Virus record (IMG/VR): IMGVR_UViG_3300034071_000719
Location: 1-64,000 of that record
Direction: 5' to 3' (one strand)
Origin: a virus
Length of the DNA stretch: 64,000 nt
Position numbers and translations under genes: made by a program. The notes under the pieces are model-generated. The model searched no databases and was not told where the DNA came from. It worked only from the letters and a program-made list of their open reading frames with translations. Shown here in pieces: positions 1 through 20,700 of the stretch; the stretch's first letter is position 1, and the number at the start of each line of letters is the position of its first letter.

Positions 1-331
1 TGATGCATAATCCGTAGTTAGCCAAACTATGTCATCATATGGGTTGTATCTTTTTCACAGTGCCCAAATCATTCGGTTTTTACACCTAATTTTTATATTG
101 TTGATTCGCTTTTTATAGCACAATACCGAGTCGCCATTCAGTGTGTAGTCTAGTCTACACGTTCCAAGTGCGGCCATTACGCGAGCACCATCTCCTCTGA
201 ATACAGAACTTAATCTGCAATAGGGCTGTTAAAACATTTACTACTTTATTACGGAGTTGGAATTTGTTTCTATGAGAGTGACTTGGTGTCTAGGAGCTAT
301 GTGTTTATTGTAATACGTTTAATGTTGTTGG
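1..331 (-). ncRNA. Putative structured non-coding RNA, truncated by the window edge
   Basis: No ORF of 60 aa or more. Many nested inverted repeats: 1-5/33-37, 15-19/25-29, 40-43/63-66, 73-77/125-129, 97-101/120-124, 143-148/155-160, 204-207/214-217. G-U extensions favour the minus strand. Confidence 0.45.
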
Positions 332-772
332 TCAACTAGTTTTATTAATTTTTACATCTTTAACGGAGTTTTTACCTAGTTTAAGTTGTATAATACCATT
401 ATAGTTATCTTCCCTTAACAGTACTTCTTCCTTAAATTGATAATGCGCTTCCATATAGTTAGTTTCTCCGCGACTGCTACACAAATGTATAATTTCGCGT
501 TTAAACTGTTCTTTGCCTAGTTCTAATATGTCTGCTACTAAACGACTTGATGAACCCCAATAGTCTTTCCAATCAGTTTCGATTGTTTCTAGACGTTTGT
601 TCTTCTTGCCTTTTAGTGGTGGTCTTTTTTTGATAGTTTTAAAATATTTGCGGCCCACATAATCGTGTCCGTTTGTGATATTAGTTATTCTATAAATGAA
701 GCCGTAATATTCACCGATATCCCCTGAATCAAAAGTTGTACCATTGTAGATCCAGGGATTATCGTATGTCAT
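332..772 (-). CDS. Compact GIY-YIG endonuclease (endonuclease II/Seg-like)
   Basis: GFIYRITN...YVGRK motif, YWGSS, conserved E (YMEA) and YN; no C-terminal DNA-binding extension. Confidence 0.85.
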   Translation of the reverse strand: MTYDNPWIYNGTTFDSGDIGEYYGFIYRITNITNGHDYVGRKYFKTIKKRPPLKGKKNKRLETIETDWKDYWGSSSRLVADILELGKEQFKREIIHLCSSRGETNYMEAHYQFKEEVLLREDNYNGIIQLKLGKNSVKDVKINKTS

Positions 773-776
773 ACGT

Positions 777-783
777 TATTTAT
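777..783 (-). promoter_or_regulatory. Late promoter motif ATAAATA, 4 nt upstream of the GIY-YIG start codon
   Basis: Resembles the T4 late promoter TATAAATA; the same motif recurs upstream of structural genes. Confidence 0.5.
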
Positions 784-965
784 TTTGCAGCCGCTGCGTT
801 TTTCTTTTCCTGAATTTCCGCACGACGAGCTTTAGTTAACTTACCTAAATCACCTAATGCACCGCGAGCACGTGCCGCCGCAGCCTTAACACCTTTAACT
901 TCAAATTTTTCTGATTCTGAAACGTATAATTCTACTGCTGCTAAAATTTCTTCATGAATTGACAT
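780..965 (-). CDS. Small basic histone H1-like (Hc1-type) DNA-binding protein
   Basis: 61 aa, Ala/Lys/Arg-rich, KGVKAAAARAR...L...K.RR pattern; strong AAGGAG RBS. Confidence 0.7.
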   Translation of the reverse strand: MSIHEEILAAVELYVSESEKFEVKGVKAAAARARGALGDLGKLTKARRAEIQEKKNAAAAK

Positions 966-983
966 GTTTTACTTCTCCTTGTT

Positions 984-998
984 GTTATGTGTATTTAA
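984..998 (-). promoter_or_regulatory. Late promoter motif TTAAATA-cac-ATAAC
   Basis: Same TAAATA-N3/4-ATAAC pattern as at 7165, 14280 and 17696. Confidence 0.55.
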
Positions 999-1031
999 CC
1001 ACCGTACAGTGGGTGGAAATTTTTTTATTGC

Positions 1032-1823
1032 CTACAATTGTGTTAATAAGAATTCTGCAAATTTTTTATTGCTTATATATCCAGGGTGTAAATTATCATT
1101 ACCTAAATCTAAATAAAATTTAGTACGAAATCCGTTATATAAATTAAGCCAGTTAGTTAATCCGTTAGCAGTTTTATATTCGGAATGCATCCTATCGTAA
1201 ATTATAAATATTTCAATGTCGCTACGCAAGTCCGTTTGTATTAATTTCTTAGTTAGCTCAGTTAAATCCTCGGGCAGCCGGCTAACATCGGCATTATAAG
1301 TAAAATAATTGTCGTCCCAAAAACAAATACCGTTTACAAAATAAAGAGTAACATTTAACTGATTGGCTAGTTTGGTTAATATTCTACAATAATTTAATAA
1401 TTCTAAAAATTCGTAATGTAAATTAGTTAAGTCAAAAAATCTATTTTTTATATTTTCTATATAATCTTTAGAGTAAGTAACATCTACTAAGTTTACTCCG
1501 TGCTCTACTAAGGTACACCCTCCTAAAAACAGACTTGTAGGATAGGTCTCTAATCCTGGGTTAACGGTTATTCGGGATGGTTCGGTCCAACAGACAAATG
1601 CAGTAGTTGGTCTGTGTGTAATTAAATCTTCTACAGTTTTACAAAAAATTTGTTTATTATTGTACCCACTTACTCCGGAATTTATTAAATTTAACGATTT
1701 TAATTTTGGATGAGTTGAGTGTAATATGTTAACCCACAATCCAGGGTCGGCATATTCTGACAATAACCCTACTCCTTGGGTAAATGAACATCCTGTAAAT
1801 AAACAATTAGACAAGTTCGACAT
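1032..1823 (-). CDS. SGNH/GDSL-like hydrolase or acyltransferase
   Basis: Block I GCSFTQG, block II GVSGYNN, C-terminal DNLHPG (DxxH). Confidence 0.65.
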   Translation of the reverse strand: MSNLSNCLFTGCSFTQGVGLLSEYADPGLWVNILHSTHPKLKSLNLINSGVSGYNNKQIFCKTVEDLITHRPTTAFVCWTEPSRITVNPGLETYPTSLFLGGCTLVEHGVNLVDVTYSKDYIENIKNRFFDLTNLHYEFLELLNYCRILTKLANQLNVTLYFVNGICFWDDNYFTYNADVSRLPEDLTELTKKLIQTDLRSDIEIFIIYDRMHSEYKTANGLTNWLNLYNGFRTKFYLDLGNDNLHPGYISNKKFAEFLLTQL

Positions 1824-3576
1824 CTGTACTATATGATGTAAACCCGTTCTCTTTGGTTACAGTCATAATATTGTTAACTCGTCCCGCAAGTTCGTCTTTA
1901 TGTGACACGAGCCAAATACTTTTCTCATGTTCACGCGACATCTTTTTAAGTATGCTTAGTGAACTTTCAACTCCACTACTGTCCATACCACTATCAATAA
2001 GCTCATCAATAAACAATAAGTTAATTGGATTGTATAAACTCTCCCACACATCACGGAACGCCCAGCTTAAACTTAGTATCAAGCGATTACGTTCGCCACG
2101 TGATAAGTTATCAAAGTCTAACTCACGCCCTAACTCTGTAATTTCGACACTTAAATCATTTAAGAACGTTACTGTGTGGGGCAAGCCGATACGATCTAAG
2201 TATTGACTTAATCGTGCGTTTAAATGCGACAAGTTCTGATCAATAATACGCTTACGAATAAAACTATCTTTGTTAGTTAATAGTTTTAACAAGAAGTCTT
2301 GATGTTCCTTTAACTTAACAAGCTCATTCATTGTAGTATAATCAGTATCCGCCATTGCAGTATGCGTCATTTCTTCAATCTGTTCAGCATACGGGTCGAC
2401 TTCTGCAGACTTAGTTGCTAACTGCGTTTCTAAACTAGTAATCGAACCCTTGTGATGAAATGCATCTGCTTCTTTATCGTAAAAGACTTTTGGTTGCGCA
2501 CCCAATACACCCAACTCAGTAAGTGCAAACTCTAACTCCATGATAGTAACACCATGCAAGTCAACTTCTATTGCGGCAACATCTAAATCAACTTTCTTAG
2601 CAGTTAGTACAGCTTCGTGCTTATCATCGTGAAACGCTTGCCCGCACGTATGACATTGATGACTTTCCAACGTAGCTATTTCTGCGGTTAACTTGTCTGC
2701 ACGTTTACGTTCACGTTCTTGATCTGCACGTGCGCGAGTTAATGCTGTAGTTAAATCAGCAATATCTTTACGCTTTTGATTGTATGCAGTAAGCCCTTTA
2801 TGTGCCGCAAGCTCTTGCTCTATATCAATTTTAAGCAGTTCTGTTAAGGCATTTTGTAGTTTTACTGTGTCATCTGTGTGCTTAGTAGTCCACATAGTTT
2901 GTCGACGTTTTAAGCTCTCAATTTGCTCTTTAATACGCTCGTTTGCGTCTGCAATCGCCTTAATTCTGTATTCTTCTTGCTGAATTGCTTCCTTAGTAGC
3001 ACGACCCAGCTCTTTAAGTTTTTCTGCTTTTTCACTTAGTACAGTAATACCAAGCAACTGTTCAATAATCTCACGCTGGTCATTTGATTTAAGACTTAAG
3101 AACGGCTCGGTGTAAGTGTTAAGCGCAACAATGTGCTTAAACATATCGTGCTTCATGCTTAACAAACGTTCAATCTCGGCTTGCGTTTCTCTACTATCAC
3201 CTTGACTCTCGTCTGTAATTTCTTTTTCTTCATCGCCCACGTAAAACTTCATTATGTTGGGCTTACGACCACGTTCAATCTTATAATCTTGCCCATTATG
3301 TTCAAACTCAACAGTAACTAACATGTTCTTACCATTAGTTTTATTAATTAAGTTATCACGTTTAATATTAGTTAACGCTTGCCCAAACAAACTGTAGCTT
3401 AGTGCATTGATGATAGTTGTTTTACCTGTGCCGTTACGTGCGCCACTATCATCTCCGCCCAAGTCAACATTAACACCAAGCACTAACGTGAGGTCATTGC
3501 GATCAAAATCCACTGCTTGCGTTGCATTACCAACACTCATGAAGTTTTTAACTGTAAGATTTTTTATTTTAAACAT
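1807..3576 (-). CDS. gp46: Recombination endonuclease ATPase subunit (gp46/SbcC/Rad50)
   Basis: Walker A NGTGKTT, coiled coil with zinc hook CHTC, signature LSRGE, Walker B LLFIDE, H-loop VSH. Confidence 0.95.
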   Translation of the reverse strand: MFKIKNLTVKNFMSVGNATQAVDFDRNDLTLVLGVNVDLGGDDSGARNGTGKTTIINALSYSLFGQALTNIKRDNLINKTNGKNMLVTVEFEHNGQDYKIERGRKPNIMKFYVGDEEKEITDESQGDSRETQAEIERLLSMKHDMFKHIVALNTYTEPFLSLKSNDQREIIEQLLGITVLSEKAEKLKELGRATKEAIQQEEYRIKAIADANERIKEQIESLKRRQTMWTTKHTDDTVKLQNALTELLKIDIEQELAAHKGLTAYNQKRKDIADLTTALTRARADQERERKRADKLTAEIATLESHQCHTCGQAFHDDKHEAVLTAKKVDLDVAAIEVDLHGVTIMELEFALTELGVLGAQPKVFYDKEADAFHHKGSITSLETQLATKSAEVDPYAEQIEEMTHTAMADTDYTTMNELVKLKEHQDFLLKLLTNKDSFIRKRIIDQNLSHLNARLSQYLDRIGLPHTVTFLNDLSVEITELGRELDFDNLSRGERNRLILSLSWAFRDVWESLYNPINLLFIDELIDSGMDSSGVESSLSILKKMSREHEKSIWLVSHKDELAGRVNNIMTVTKENGFTSYSTDVELV

Positions 3577-4442
3577 AGCTTCTCAATCATATTATTAATT
3601 TCTTTTGTTGACTTAAACCAATCTTTATAGTCGTATACTGGTATTATAACATTAAATTCTTTCTCAATGCAATAATTAATATAGCCTTGTTCATGCAGAT
3701 CGGTAATATTAGTAATATCAAATGGCTCTTTATCTTTTATTGCTTGCATAATGATATTGGTATTTGTATATATCGCAAAATAAGATGAATTTGCTACTAA
3801 CCAATCTCTAAGAGATTGATCGAGTGCCTCATGATTGATTACGGTCATGTTCAATGTATTGATTAATGTTTCTATAGTACTAATTGGATTAGTTATTAGA
3901 TCTTCTAATTCTACATTTATTGTATTGTCGTCTTTATTCCATGCAAACGGCCAGTTGTGATAAAATAACGTAAAATTTTCTCTAATTGCATATGATTCAT
4001 TAGCATCGGTCCAGTTTGCAGCTATATGATTGCTATTAGCGTCGACTATATTTTCTTCGGAGGCCTTTATCATACAAGTTTGATAGATAATCGGCCGTAC
4101 AGCATTACTAATTACTAATCGAACTATTGTTGCATTTGGAAAATTTTTATTAATCTTTGTATAATTGTCGTTATTAATTCCGTTATCACATAATACTAAT
4201 ATTTTTTTGTTATTGTGTTCTACTGCAATAGTTGGTATATATACTAACGGATCTTTATAATATATTTCTGTATATTTTGTACTCTGATGACTGCGGCCAG
4301 TAGAGTCAAACTTAAACGTCGAATTATCTACTTTAACTGTTTCGTTTGCAAATTCAGTTAATATATGATATATAAAGTTTCCAAATCCGCCCGACGGATA
4401 ACTTATTAATATAATATCGCTACTAGCAGTATCAAAAATCAT
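3564..4442 (-). CDS. Hypothetical protein, possible sulfotransferase-like P-loop fold
   Basis: N-terminal IILISYPSGGFGNFIYHIL resembles the 5'-PSB loop region; later VELEDLITNP motif. Confidence 0.4.
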   Translation of the reverse strand: MIFDTASSDIILISYPSGGFGNFIYHILTEFANETVKVDNSTFKFDSTGRSHQSTKYTEIYYKDPLVYIPTIAVEHNNKKILVLCDNGINNDNYTKINKNFPNATIVRLVISNAVRPIIYQTCMIKASEENIVDANSNHIAANWTDANESYAIRENFTLFYHNWPFAWNKDDNTINVELEDLITNPISTIETLINTLNMTVINHEALDQSLRDWLVANSSYFAIYTNTNIIMQAIKDKEPFDITNITDLHEQGYINYCIEKEFNVIIPVYDYKDWFKSTKEINNMIEKLCLK

Positions 4443-6174: not shown

Positions 6175-7068
6175 TTATTCGTCTGCGCCGTGTCCGCCAC
6201 CACCCCAACTACCACCGCCCTGATTCTGACGAGTGTAGCTTGGTGCGTAGTTGTTCATCTCTAAGATGTCGTCACGAATGTTTTGATTACGCTTTTCGAT
6301 GTTTAATACACGAGTAAAGCTGTTTGTAATTGCGGCTGTATAATAGGCAAATGGATTGTCTGATTTACTTTCATCAAACTGTAGCCCAATTTGACTTAAT
6401 TGAAGTAATGCTTGCGAACGCATCTCGTCATTATATGTATAACCACGCCAGTTACTACGTGTAGCATAGCGTTCACATAGTTTAACAAACATATGAGCTA
6501 ACTTAGCAGTCATCTGTCCGTGATCTCTACTGAAGTTACCAGTTTCTAAATCGCCCTTCCAGTGACTCTTACCAACAATAACTGGTGTTAAGTCTTCTGT
6601 AACAGAATAATGAAAGAATGGAGGAAAATTTAGTTTAACGTACTTAGTAGCACCTTTAACTTTAACAGCGGGTTCATCGTATTCAGTTTCGAATAAGTCT
6701 TCGTCGTATGCTTCTTGTGCTTTAGCATCGGATTTTTTCTGTTTAACTTCATCGATTGGTATATGTTCCCACGTCATAACACGGAACACAATGTCTGTTA
6801 CTGGAATATTTTCTACTGGGATTGCAAATTCATCTAATTTGCGTTTGTTGCCAAGTAACAGTTCGGCTTCTTGTGCTTCTTTTGCTAACCTAGTTGCACG
6901 TGTTGCCCTTGCTTCTGCTACGGATTTTTTGGTAATTGCACTAACATTTGATACAATAGCATCATAGATCATGACTTCTTTGTTAATGAAACTACAATAT
7001 GCTAATTTACTTTTTGCTATTTCTTTTAATATGTCTTTGTTGTTGAGATAATTAATTTTACGAGCCAC
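6175..7068 (-). CDS. gp55: Late-transcription sigma factor (gp55-like)
   Basis: NYLNNKD, NWRGYTYNDEM, FDESKSDNPFAYYT motifs; upstream of gp47/gp46 as in T4-like phages. Confidence 0.88.
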   Translation of the reverse strand: MARKINYLNNKDILKEIAKSKLAYCSFINKEVMIYDAIVSNVSAITKKSVAEARATRATRLAKEAQEAELLLGNKRKLDEFAIPVENIPVTDIVFRVMTWEHIPIDEVKQKKSDAKAQEAYDEDLFETEYDEPAVKVKGATKYVKLNFPPFFHYSVTEDLTPVIVGKSHWKGDLETGNFSRDHGQMTAKLAHMFVKLCERYATRSNWRGYTYNDEMRSQALLQLSQIGLQFDESKSDNPFAYYTAAITNSFTRVLNIEKRNQNIRDDILEMNNYAPSYTRQNQGGGSWGGGGHGADE

Positions 7069-17718: not shown

Positions 17719-20700
17719 ATGACAATGGCATCTAGAAAAACCCTTAAATTTTTACCAACAATATTCCAAACAGATACGAATAGTAAATTCTTGTCGGCGA
17801 CATTAGATCAATTAATTGCCGAACCCGAATTAAAAACTATACATGGATATATAGGTAGAAAATTTGCGCCAACATATAAAAATAAAGATAGTTACTTAGT
17901 TGAAAGTTTAACTGAACGCCAAAATTATCAACTTGAACCAAGTATAGTTGCTCGTGATGACCAACAAAATATTACATTCTTTGCTAGTTATATTGACTTA
18001 TTAAATAAAATAGATTACTATGGTGGCATAACAACTGATCACAGTCGATTATTTGCTTCGGAATATTACTCATTTAATCCGCAAATTTCGTACGATAAGT
18101 TTATTAACTTTACACAATATTTCTGGTTACCAAACGGTCCTGATTCAGTTGATGTATATACCGGTAGTGTACCACTAACTGATACTATCACAGTACACAG
18201 AGATAGTACTACAAATAAATATCGATTTGAGTCCACAGGGCGCAATAACGGTACCTTAATATTAGCCCGCGGCGGAGTGTATACCTTTGAAGTTAATCAA
18301 CCCGGGCATCCATTTTGGATTCAGACTGAATTAGGAATCGACGGCCTTGTAAATTCAACACCCGGAATTAGTTCACGTGAAGTATTAGGGGTAACCAATA
18401 ACGGAGCCGATGTTGGTACGATTACGTTCTTAGTGCCACAATCGACTGCACAAGATAATTTTAATTCGATGAATTTAATCTACAATGTAGATTATGCTAT
18501 ACCGTTGGCATATTCAAAAATTCAACATCAATTATTATCTAATTTTATACAAGCATTTCCACAATATGCTCCTATTGCAGCAAATATTGATGGTAAAACT
18601 TTAATCTTTATTGATCAAGATCAATTAACTAATTATGGCGAAAACGCTTGGATCACACCCGGCTTATTTGACAACCATGGTATAGAAGTAGACGAGTTTG
18701 ATGCAGGATATGTAGTAACTAACAATCAACGTTACGGTGTATGGAAAATAATGTTGATTGAAAATGGCGGTGACACAATTATTAGATTAGTGCCAGTGAT
18801 AGATGTACCGCTGAATAATAAGGTATATATTCAATCTGGGATTACTAATGTTAACCGAGAATACTTTAAGGATTATGATGAATTTTTCCATCAAGTCCCT
18901 GTAATTTCAAGTGTACAAAATACAATATATTATCAAGATGGGTCATCATCTGACCTATACGGCCAATTCTCTTTAATTAATCCTGCAAGTTGGATCATTG
19001 ATGTAGATCAAGAAATTATTGGAAAGTCTGAATACATTAGTCCTAACGGAATTGAATTCACAACAGGATTAAAAATTAAATTCGGCACAGATGTCTACCC
19101 AGCAACATATCAAAACAATAGTTATTATGTAGAGGGAGTAGGTGATGCAATTCGACTAGTTGACATTACTGCATTGATTACTCCGGAACCATTCAATGAT
19201 GAATTAGCAATAAATTATCCTGGGCAAGTATTTCCTGACTATATTACGATTAATCGTGCTAGCAAAGATTTAAATGCATGGTCACGTAGTAATAGATGGT
19301 TCCATAGAGATGTAATTGAAAAGACTGCAGAATATAATTCAACAACACCAGCGTATGATCAATTGCAACGTGCGCAACGTCCTATTGTACAATTTAACGC
19401 CGATTATCAATTATTTAATAACGGACGTATTGGTAAAAAAGCAATTGATATATTGGATACATTAACCACAGATGCATTTAGTGATGTTGAAGGAACCTAT
19501 CAAACTATATTTCGTGGCGCAACTATTATAAATGGAACTCGTGTTATATTTGCTAACGACAATGATCCGTTAGTCCGTAATAACATTTATGAAATTAATT
19601 TAGTATATATAACGGTAGATGAATTTCAACGACCAGTAGGCGATCCACAAATTACATTGACTCTAGCCGCAGATGGTATAGCAGAACAATATGATTCGAC
19701 TGTAATCACAACAGGGCAGTATAAAGGAACATCTTGGTGGTTTAACGGCATTAACTGGGTTGAAAGCCAAACAAAAACAAGCAATCAGCAAGACCCATTG
19801 TTTGATATATTTGATTCGGCTGATACTAGTTTATCAGAATATCCAGCAAGTACCTTTGCTGGTACTAAGCTATTTGGCTATAAACGAAATTCAACAGGGC
19901 GCACTGACCCAGTATTGCAATTTCCACTTAGTTATAGAAACTTCGGAACACAAGGCGATATCGAATTTTCTAATTACTATAATATAGATACGTTTAGTTA
20001 TACAGCAAACCCAATTACTCAAATTTCTATCGGGTCATTGCATAAAATTGCAGACCGTTATAATTCTGTATCGTCTACTATTTGGTCAACAGTTATTGAA
20101 GAAAGTAAACAATACCAATTAATATCATATATCTATTTGGGCTCGACCACAATATTTGCAATTGATGTTACACCTGCGGTTGAATCTACTATTCCGTATC
20201 TGCGTGTATTTCAAAATAATGTATTGTTAACCCCTACTCAATGGGTATTTAATTCTGTAACAAAAACTATTAGTTTAGTGGCTACCCCTGCAATCGACGA
20301 TAAAATCGATATCTTAGTATACAGTAAAGAAGTAAGTAAACTTGGGCACTATCAGATTCCGTTAAATTTAGATTTAAATGCACAAAATATTGATTTAGAA
20401 TCATTGACCTTAGGCCAGATACGTAATCATGTGGTTGCGTTAAGTCACAATAGCAAAGAATTAGTTGGTAATATTCTTGGCCCTAATAATTTACGAGATA
20501 TTGAGCTTGCAACGCAAGGCGGCAACATCTTGCAACATAGCGCACCTGTTCCACATGCTGCATTATTTTTATTAAACGAAGATACTAATTTTGTTAACGC
20601 AGTTCGTTATGCACAACAAGAATATGCTAGATTTAAAAATAAATTTCTTGAATATAGCACAACATTAAATGGCATTCAACCAACTGATCCGTCTGCTAGT

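Follow-up and report, generated by a model that had tools for sequence, protein, structure and literature searches.

The left end of the DNA analyzed here, the first 64,000 nucleotides (nt) of IMG/VR virus record IMGVR_UViG_3300034071_000719 (the window), very probably encodes the 5′ domain of a large, pseudoknotted, stand-alone noncoding RNA (ncRNA), the twin-box RNA, from a family that is carried by T4-related jumbo phages and has not been catalogued. The domain lies on the minus strand at positions 1-236, and we consider it highly probable that it comes from a genuine member of the family. The window takes up 64 kb at the start of a viral contig of 79.6 kb (CheckV completeness, 23%); its position 1 is base 1 of the record, and the remainder of the RNA lies beyond the contig end. 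An earlier note, made from the letters alone, had singled out positions 1-331 as the longest stretch free of open reading frames (ORFs) and had taken them for the 5′ part of a multi-stem phage RNA, transcribed from the minus strand and running off the contig edge. The stretch does stand apart, with 331 nt as compared with 125 nt for the runner-up in the whole window, and none of its frames stays open for more than 57 codons. The strand was correctly assigned, and relatives continue past the edge as an RNA of ~450-500 nt with strong covariation.

Evidence for the 5′ domain comes from an alignment (A3, n=38) of positions 1-236, read on the minus strand, with 37 sequences of the window-like clade A. 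On this alignment we scored a model of 11 helices and 48 pairs, drawn from RNAalifold output plus inspection (Table 1). Standard pairs make up 97.8% of the model, against 81.9 ± 0.6 in shuffles, none of which reached the observed value in 500 trials, and 31 of the 48 pairs show changes on both sides, that is, compensatory double changes. The covariation score is 0.457, as opposed to 0.164 in shuffles and at most 0.077 when the partners are slid by 1-3 columns. The window sequence itself can form every pair of the model except one, a U-U in P7. Selection acts on the fold of the RNA itself.

The model retains much of what had been seen by eye. All of the stems listed in the earlier note are present where it placed them, and six are real helices by the measure of covariation: GTGTAG/CTACAC is P5, TGGG/CCCA is P7 with TGT/ACA as P7a, TGATG/CATCA is the outer stem of P8, GCAGA/UCUGU is P2, and CAUAG/UUAUG forms part of the inner P8. 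Two others have to be given up, since TCGGT/ACCGA clashes with the covarying hairpin P6 and TAGTT/AACTA falls within the conserved 8-nt loop of P8; P1, P3, P4 and P6 had been missed. The remaining two, ATTGT/ACAAT and GCT/AGC, correspond to a lineage-specific hairpin (96-125) that most relatives lack. In alignments A1 and A3 it occurs only in the window-like subgroup and in L035, L084, L027 and L006, and it is nearly invariant, hence carries no covariation information. Between hairpins P2, P4/P4b and P5, the multi-branch loop exposes the invariant single-stranded segments GAGGAGAU and UGGAAC. Together with its flank, the loop of P8 reads GGCUAACUACG, an 11-nt stretch that we take to occur also in the 530-loop region of 16S rRNA of many bacteria, probably by coincidence; clade B, the more divergent branch of the family, does not keep this loop-and-flank sequence.

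The family is large. A search with the small GIY-YIG protein encoded next to the RNA led to 80 IMG/VR loci, and every one of them that reaches far enough downstream carries a block homologous to positions 1-331. The block continues for ~270 nt past the end of the window, and its conserved part begins at about position 236. Scanning with a 28-nt core motif added at least 120 further loci and two contigs of one Haliscomenobacter metagenome-assembled genome (MAG). Among the matches listed, blastn and nhmmer recognize the element in about 190 IMG/VR loci, and the non-redundant sequences number 54 for clade A and 77 for the much more divergent clade B. The RNA measures ~490 nt in the window's version and 330-550 nt in relatives. 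In nearly all loci it follows an upstream gene in the same orientation and faces a convergent gene downstream, at the end of a late-sigma(gp55)-gp47-gp46-Hc1-GIY-YIG gene run. Many clade-B loci, for example L201:880-960, have an additional conserved hairpin, GUAUCUGGCC...GCCUGAUAC, with a loop of ~27 nt, located 3′ of the terminal hairpin of the RNA; clade A is without it.

The most conserved part of the RNA lies outside the window. Positions 1-331 are 99.4% identical to two contigs, L002 and L004, that extend into the rest of the RNA and therefore serve as a proxy for the missing part. In an alignment of 55 diverse cores (A2), a four-pair junction helix, WGAG/CUCW, in which the W pair alternates between A-U, U-A and G-C, encloses an invariant hairpin with a three-base bulge and a variable hairpin, giving a three-way junction. 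In full-length members the core hairpin reads GAGUAGGG...ACCGCYUCC. The core is 94.8% paired as compared with 85.0% in shuffles, its covariation score is 0.301 versus 0.126 (reached by 0 of 500 shuffles), and RNAalifold finds compensatory changes in 32 of 87 pairs. The four loop bases of the invariant hairpin and the C that follows them pair with a GYYRN segment ~30 nt upstream, forming a pseudoknot that covaries at three positions (for example, GUCGU/GCGAC, GCCAG/CUGAC and GUUGA/UCAAC). The MAFFT register blurs this interaction in the pair counts of A2, and its compensation was read by eye, in three clades that include the copies of phages 121Q and GAP32.

Beyond the core lie the two boxes for which we name the RNA. 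They are 49-58 nt apart, one following ACUC and the other AUCU, and each holds the motif RGAYNAW; among several registers tried by eye, the long hairpin between them is the only solid helix of this domain, and an A-rich linker comes after them. In all 125 non-redundant RNAs among the matches listed in which a pattern located both boxes, the 7-nt words of the two boxes are identical, a property that the pattern did not require. There are ten word types, with variation confined to 3-4 of the 7 positions, and a tree inferred after masking of the boxes requires at least 31 changes of the word. L002, L024 and L010, all near-identical to the window, carry the core together with the twin word GGAUGAA. 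Mutual information reveals no other column of the RNA that covaries with the word, and the RNA, the 300 nt on either side of it and the fetched loci show no enrichment of the anti-word; a combined MAFFT alignment of clades A and B was too noisy and misaligned for an all-against-all covariation analysis and was left unused. We know of no described RNA in which covariation takes the form of identity between two words and not complementarity. On the two Haliscomenobacter contigs (148 and 183 kb), a Seg-like gene accompanies a clade-B RNA in each case (L201:36-863 and L202:4059-4845) and the words differ, AGAUGAU in one and GGAUGAU in the other. Either these are jumbo-phage contigs binned in error, or they hint at the host.

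Relatives also exist in cultured phages. R1, a covariance model that represents the core in 165 positions, matches two sites in E. coli phage 121Q, two in Cronobacter phage GAP32 and one in Klebsiella phage RaK2 (Table 1), and has no match in PA5oct or Atu_ph07. The five enterobacterial-phage copies can be aligned across ~550 nt, where 40 of 93 predicted pairs are compensatory; the pseudoknot is compensated here as well (GUCAU/AUGAC, GUUGU/ACAAC, GUUGC/GCAAC), and the twin words CGUCAA, CGUCAG and CUUCAA are each the same in both boxes of a copy. In 121Q the copies occupy unannotated gaps of 722 and 612 nt. The first of them directly follows a sigma-factor gene and is preceded by a terminator and an extended -10 box, so that the RNA looks like a unit of its own in this phage. 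The two 121Q copies are paralogous (L208:1190-1750 and L211:1175-1740, at 90.3-90.9 kb and 192.8-193.4 kb) and share a long 5′ domain unlike that of the lake phages; GAP32 likewise has two copies.

The twin-box family is absent from Rfam 15 and, as a class of RNA, is new. Neither the left end of the window nor, even at E values up to 10, the isolated RNAs of relatives match any family, apart from chance matches far below the gathering scores (mir-137, S15, Ysr49, RT-17, snoU83B). Full-length relatives give no match to GOLLD (RF01998) or ROOL (RF03087) at the gathering score or at E up to 10, and HEARO and the group I and group II introns are likewise without an Rfam match. The freshwater motif Polynucleobacter-1 (RF01718; gathering score, 37 bits) matches none of five carrier records at E up to 10, and it is absent from cmscan results for the isolated RNAs and for 13 further loci. 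ARAGORN predicts no tRNA or tmRNA gene in positions 1-3000 or in 10 related loci, blastn of the window and of two full RNAs finds no similar DNA in GenBank phages, and a literature search found no description of the twin-box RNA. The earlier note had cited GOLLD and ROOL as precedents while declining to assign a family, and its caution was justified: the Infernal searches leave the two comparable in kind and not homologous.

All genes near the left end of the window are on the minus strand, in the order gp55-like, 223-amino-acid (aa) endonuclease, gp47, 292-aa ORF, gp46, 263-aa ORF, Hc1-like and GIY-YIG, and positions 1-331 come last in the same orientation. The nearest cultured relatives of gp46 are from the jumbo phages PA5oct (50% amino-acid identity), Phosso and Atu_ph07, and contigs related to the window's reach 329-347 kb, with terminal repeats; judged by these sequences, therefore, the virus is an uncultured freshwater jumbo phage. 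The 146-aa GIY-YIG protein encoded next to the RNA comprises the catalytic domain only and matches the 148-aa family phrog_447 over its full length. With the 223-aa endonuclease between the gp55-like gene and gp47, the run contains two GIY-YIG genes. A sigma-70-like sequence lies near the start of the spacer that separates the GIY-YIG stop codon from the RNA. Across the family, promoter-like sites before the RNA are not enriched over control, and a sigma-70 promoter at this place is not general.

Table 1. Features of the window, and sites matched by core model R1 in cultured phages (coordinates refer to the window unless a phage is named)
Feature	Position	Strand	Remarks
5′ domain of the ~490-nt twin-box RNA	1-236	-	complete, ~233 nt; RNA runs off contig end at 1
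P1	226-224/133-135	-	with P3 closes multi-branch loop (133-226)
P2	218-215/203-206	-	hairpin within multi-branch loop
P3	202-197/136-141	-	double changes in 5/6 pairs
P4	189-185/167-171	-	double changes in 5/5 pairs
P4b	182-181/173-174	-	extends hairpin P4 within multi-branch loop
P5	160-155/143-148	-	double changes in 5/6 pairs
Expansion hairpin UAUUGU/ACAAUA, inner GCU/AGC	96-125	-	lineage-specific
P6 (GGU/ACC), conserved loop GUAAAA	86-84/75-77	-	100% paired; third pair alternates UA, CG, GC
P7	68-63/38-43	-	encloses P7a and A-rich loop; double changes in 4/6 pairs
P7a	59-58/45-46	-	double changes in 1/2 pairs
P8 outer stem	37-35/1-3	-	
P8 inner 8-bp stem	30-23/7-14	-	97.4% paired; double changes in 6/8 pairs
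P8 conserved 8-nt loop GCUAACUA	22-15	-	
Spacer, GIY-YIG stop codon to RNA	237-331	-	lineage-specific; kept only in relatives at least 90% identical
Sigma-70-like TTGACC-17-TACAAT	335-307	-	10/12 match
SegE-like GIY-YIG protein gene, 146 aa	332-772	-	Pfam PF19835, E 2e-36; directly upstream of RNA	
Hc1-like (chlamydial histone H1-like) protein gene, 61 aa	780-965	-	Pfam PF07432, E 4e-9
GIY-YIG-type homing endonuclease gene, 223 aa	5449-6120	-	phrog_314, E 2e-16; weak PF19835 match
gp55-like late sigma factor gene	6175-7068	-	phrog_12791, E 4e-78
Single ORF, 4255 aa	17719-30486	+	
R1 match	E. coli phage 121Q 90621-90771		35.8 bits
R1 match	E. coli phage 121Q 193150-193314		23.8 bits
R1 matches	Cronobacter phage GAP32, two sites		25.1 and 22.9 bits
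R1 match	Klebsiella phage RaK2, one site		19.5 bits

Assembled contigs from lake RNA libraries also contain the RNA. The stretch of L002 that comprises the Seg gene and the RNA, near-identical to the window, recurs in lake-water metagenomes from about 20 studies; six metatranscriptome runs contain it in part, and four of these were compared with L002. Three studies have the RNA in their RNA libraries, and a contig may include the two genes upstream of it as well: one 1550-nt contig (X23, depth 159.5) covers L002 2804-4071, that is, Hc1-like gene, GIY-YIG gene and RNA, a second of 573 nt (X22) joins the GIY-YIG gene to the RNA, and a third of 407 nt (X19) begins at the GIY-YIG stop codon. The convergent genes downstream have depths of 2-6 in such contigs. 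L002 2000-2800 has no RNA-library contigs, and as contigs cannot show absence, this region was not used as evidence. The Hc1-like gene is strongly represented in the lake RNA-library contigs and is the first gene that the RNA-bearing ones cover.

Several observations weigh against a stand-alone RNA of this kind, or against parts of the case for it. Relative to dinucleotide shuffles, the minimum free energy of positions 1-331 has a z score of -0.96 on the minus strand and +0.09 on the plus strand, that of positions 1-236 (minus strand) is an unremarkable -1.31, and the full RNA of a near-identical contig reaches -2.07. The earlier note had named a lack of conservation or covariation, conserved protein coding, and energies no better than those of shuffled controls as signs that there is no RNA; conservation and covariation are present and coding is not conserved, but the energies are indeed no better than shuffles. 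Energy alone would fail the finding, and it is the comparative evidence that decides. The window itself contains only the peripheral 5′ domain, with the core, the twin boxes and the 3′ hairpins supplied by the near-identical contigs. The noise of R1 lies at about 22 bits, the score of a match inside an ORF of the window's own contig, and the weaker matches in GAP32 and RaK2 therefore rest on context and on the five-copy alignment, not on score. That noise match (17921-18042, antisense within the 4255-aa ORF) is the only one in the contig and was rejected as a second copy of the RNA. Assembled contigs have no strand, no ends and one depth figure each, and are no proof of transcription. Finally, of the 108 evaluable lake-phage loci to which the RNA motif led, 106 have the GIY-YIG gene upstream and co-oriented, and in these phages a partnership is possible.

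What the RNA does can be approached through its words. They are identical and not complementary despite their many changes, and both must therefore satisfy one reader; no reader was found in the RNA or nearby, which makes an external partner the simplest reading. We tentatively propose, as a possibility well short of an even chance, that the RNA acts in trans as a rigid scaffold presenting two identical single-stranded words to one such partner. The partner would be a nucleic acid present as two copies or two repeats and specified by another phage locus or by the host, or possibly a dimeric protein, and both words would pair with it or be read by it. The 5′ domain found in the window would then lie at the periphery, evolve faster and lend structural support to the conserved core. 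An external partner would explain covariation of the identity type without a complementary segment in the RNA. Against this, no partner for the boxes was found in the RNA, its flanks or the locus.

A different role would tie the RNA to the minimal GIY-YIG nuclease upstream, as its guide, scaffold or regulator, with the boxes replacing the missing DNA-binding domain. A protein reduced to its catalytic domain, RNA-library contigs that join gene and RNA, and boxes that change fast and in concert are all in keeping with this proposal, as is the linkage itself. Among the matches listed, the RNA motif alone led to 119 loci. In 92 the small GIY-YIG gene is at most 400 nt upstream; in 14 the distance is 689-1944 nt and a further gene intervenes; 11 loci do not extend far enough for a judgement, and 2 lack the gene. 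The 14 interrupted loci speak against an obligate pair, as do the copies of 121Q and GAP32, which have no GIY-YIG homologue within flanks of ~1.5 kb; moreover, a 7-nt word with 3-4 varying positions offers too little for targeting, all carriers are related phages, and the linkage may simply be conserved gene order. We consider this alternative improbable. Little credence, likewise, is given to its most specific form, an RNA-directed GIY-YIG system in which the words would be a re-programmable address that captures two copies of an external nucleic acid and, in the lake phages, aims or controls the nuclease. Most likely, synteny and a shared transcript connect the small GIY-YIG gene with the RNA, and it is not an obligate partner. 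The junction is also a hot spot for insertions: in the close relatives L006-L008, L026 and L027 (about 3549-4282) an insertion of ~730 nt splits the GIY-YIG gene and spacer from the RNA, and in other loci a gene of 232-276 aa is inserted between the GIY-YIG gene and the RNA.

The RNA might instead act at its own locus, as a replication-origin or primer RNA like ColE1 RNA II or the R-loop transcripts of T4 oriF and oriG, with the fold controlling an RNA-DNA hybrid. It is large and structured and adjoins the recombination genes gp46/gp47, an A-rich linker follows the boxes, and 121Q and GAP32 have two copies per genome, which recalls the several origins of T4. This idea, too, we consider improbable: the junction in the lake phages is convergent and not divergent, and an R-loop leaves the identity of two internal words unexplained. 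Distinctly improbable as well is a cis-acting 3′ untranslated region that stabilizes or regulates the Hc1-GIY-YIG mRNA as an exonuclease block or terminator complex. Like such an element, the RNA comes last in a transcription unit, occurs in RNA-library contigs together with the upstream genes and has conserved hairpins at its end, but a length of 450-500 nt, pseudoknot-type interactions at two places and unpaired invariant bases by the dozen far exceed what protection needs, and the terminator and extended -10 box before the 121Q copy make it look like a separate unit.

Two further ideas concern the twin words themselves. A rolling template, or never-ending ORF, was rejected: there is no reverse transcriptase gene and the distance between the boxes is not divisible by 3. 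The domain RVT_1 has no match in two complete and one partial genome of lake jumbo phages, in 121Q or in GAP32. For the same two reasons, a template RNA of the retron or DRT type is unlikely. A parallel duplex of homo-base pairs between the two boxes, which would demand identity, is an exotic possibility. That there is no functional RNA at all, and that we see chance stems, the decayed remains of a gene, for instance of a DNA-binding half that the endonuclease lost, or a homing cassette or intron of group I type, is scarcely credible, for although the folding energies would allow it and GIY-YIG homing genes often sit in group I introns, the heavy covariation refutes it unless the alignments are artefacts, the 146-aa protein is full length for its family and intact in the 80 relatives, and there is no Intron_gpI (RF00028) match, no interrupted host gene, only 7 nt between the preceding Hc1-like ORF and the GIY-YIG start, and a convergent gene arrangement after the RNA.

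Few classes of large, intricately folded bacterial or phage RNA are known, and RNase P, the group I and II introns, OLE, GOLLD and ROOL have each taught new RNA biology. The twin-box family is widespread in freshwater jumbo phages, the window's version alone occurring in the roughly 20 lake studies mentioned above, and its relatives in the culturable phages 121Q, GAP32 and RaK2 open its function to genetics and biochemistry. For annotation, the RNA accounts for the only large "empty" gap in these gene-dense genomes.

Among known systems, the Polynucleobacter-1 motif (RF01718) is an orphan from freshwater and estuaries (Weinberg et al. 2010, PMC2864571); the twin-box RNA resembles it as a freshwater orphan RNA and differs in that the RF01718 model is without a match in twin-box carriers. 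Phage PA5oct, a jumbo phage related through gp46, produces an abundant ncRNA of similar size, ncRNA002, which has 451 nt and makes up 4-5% of phage reads (PMC7318152). Its membership in the family was ruled out, as R1 scores at most 5 bits with filters off, and PA5oct has no gap after gp46. ColE1 RNA II and the T4 oriF/oriG transcripts offer a parallel as RNAs, large or made from a promoter, that would act on the DNA they come from; the twin-box RNA differs in lying between convergent genes, and nothing in them corresponds to its intricate conserved core and twin boxes. With GOLLD and ROOL it shares a length of several hundred nt, many helices and pseudoknots, a phage-borne existence and abundance. 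Like the twin-box RNA, GOLLD was first seen in lake metagenomes. Both GOLLD and ROOL are large ornate RNAs, often borne by phages or prophages, and have been studied by cryo-electron microscopy (PMC12286853). The twin-box RNA has no homology to either that cmscan detects at E up to 10, is not located beside tRNA genes in the loci analyzed here, and is set apart by its twin boxes and by its carriers, the T4-related jumbo phages.
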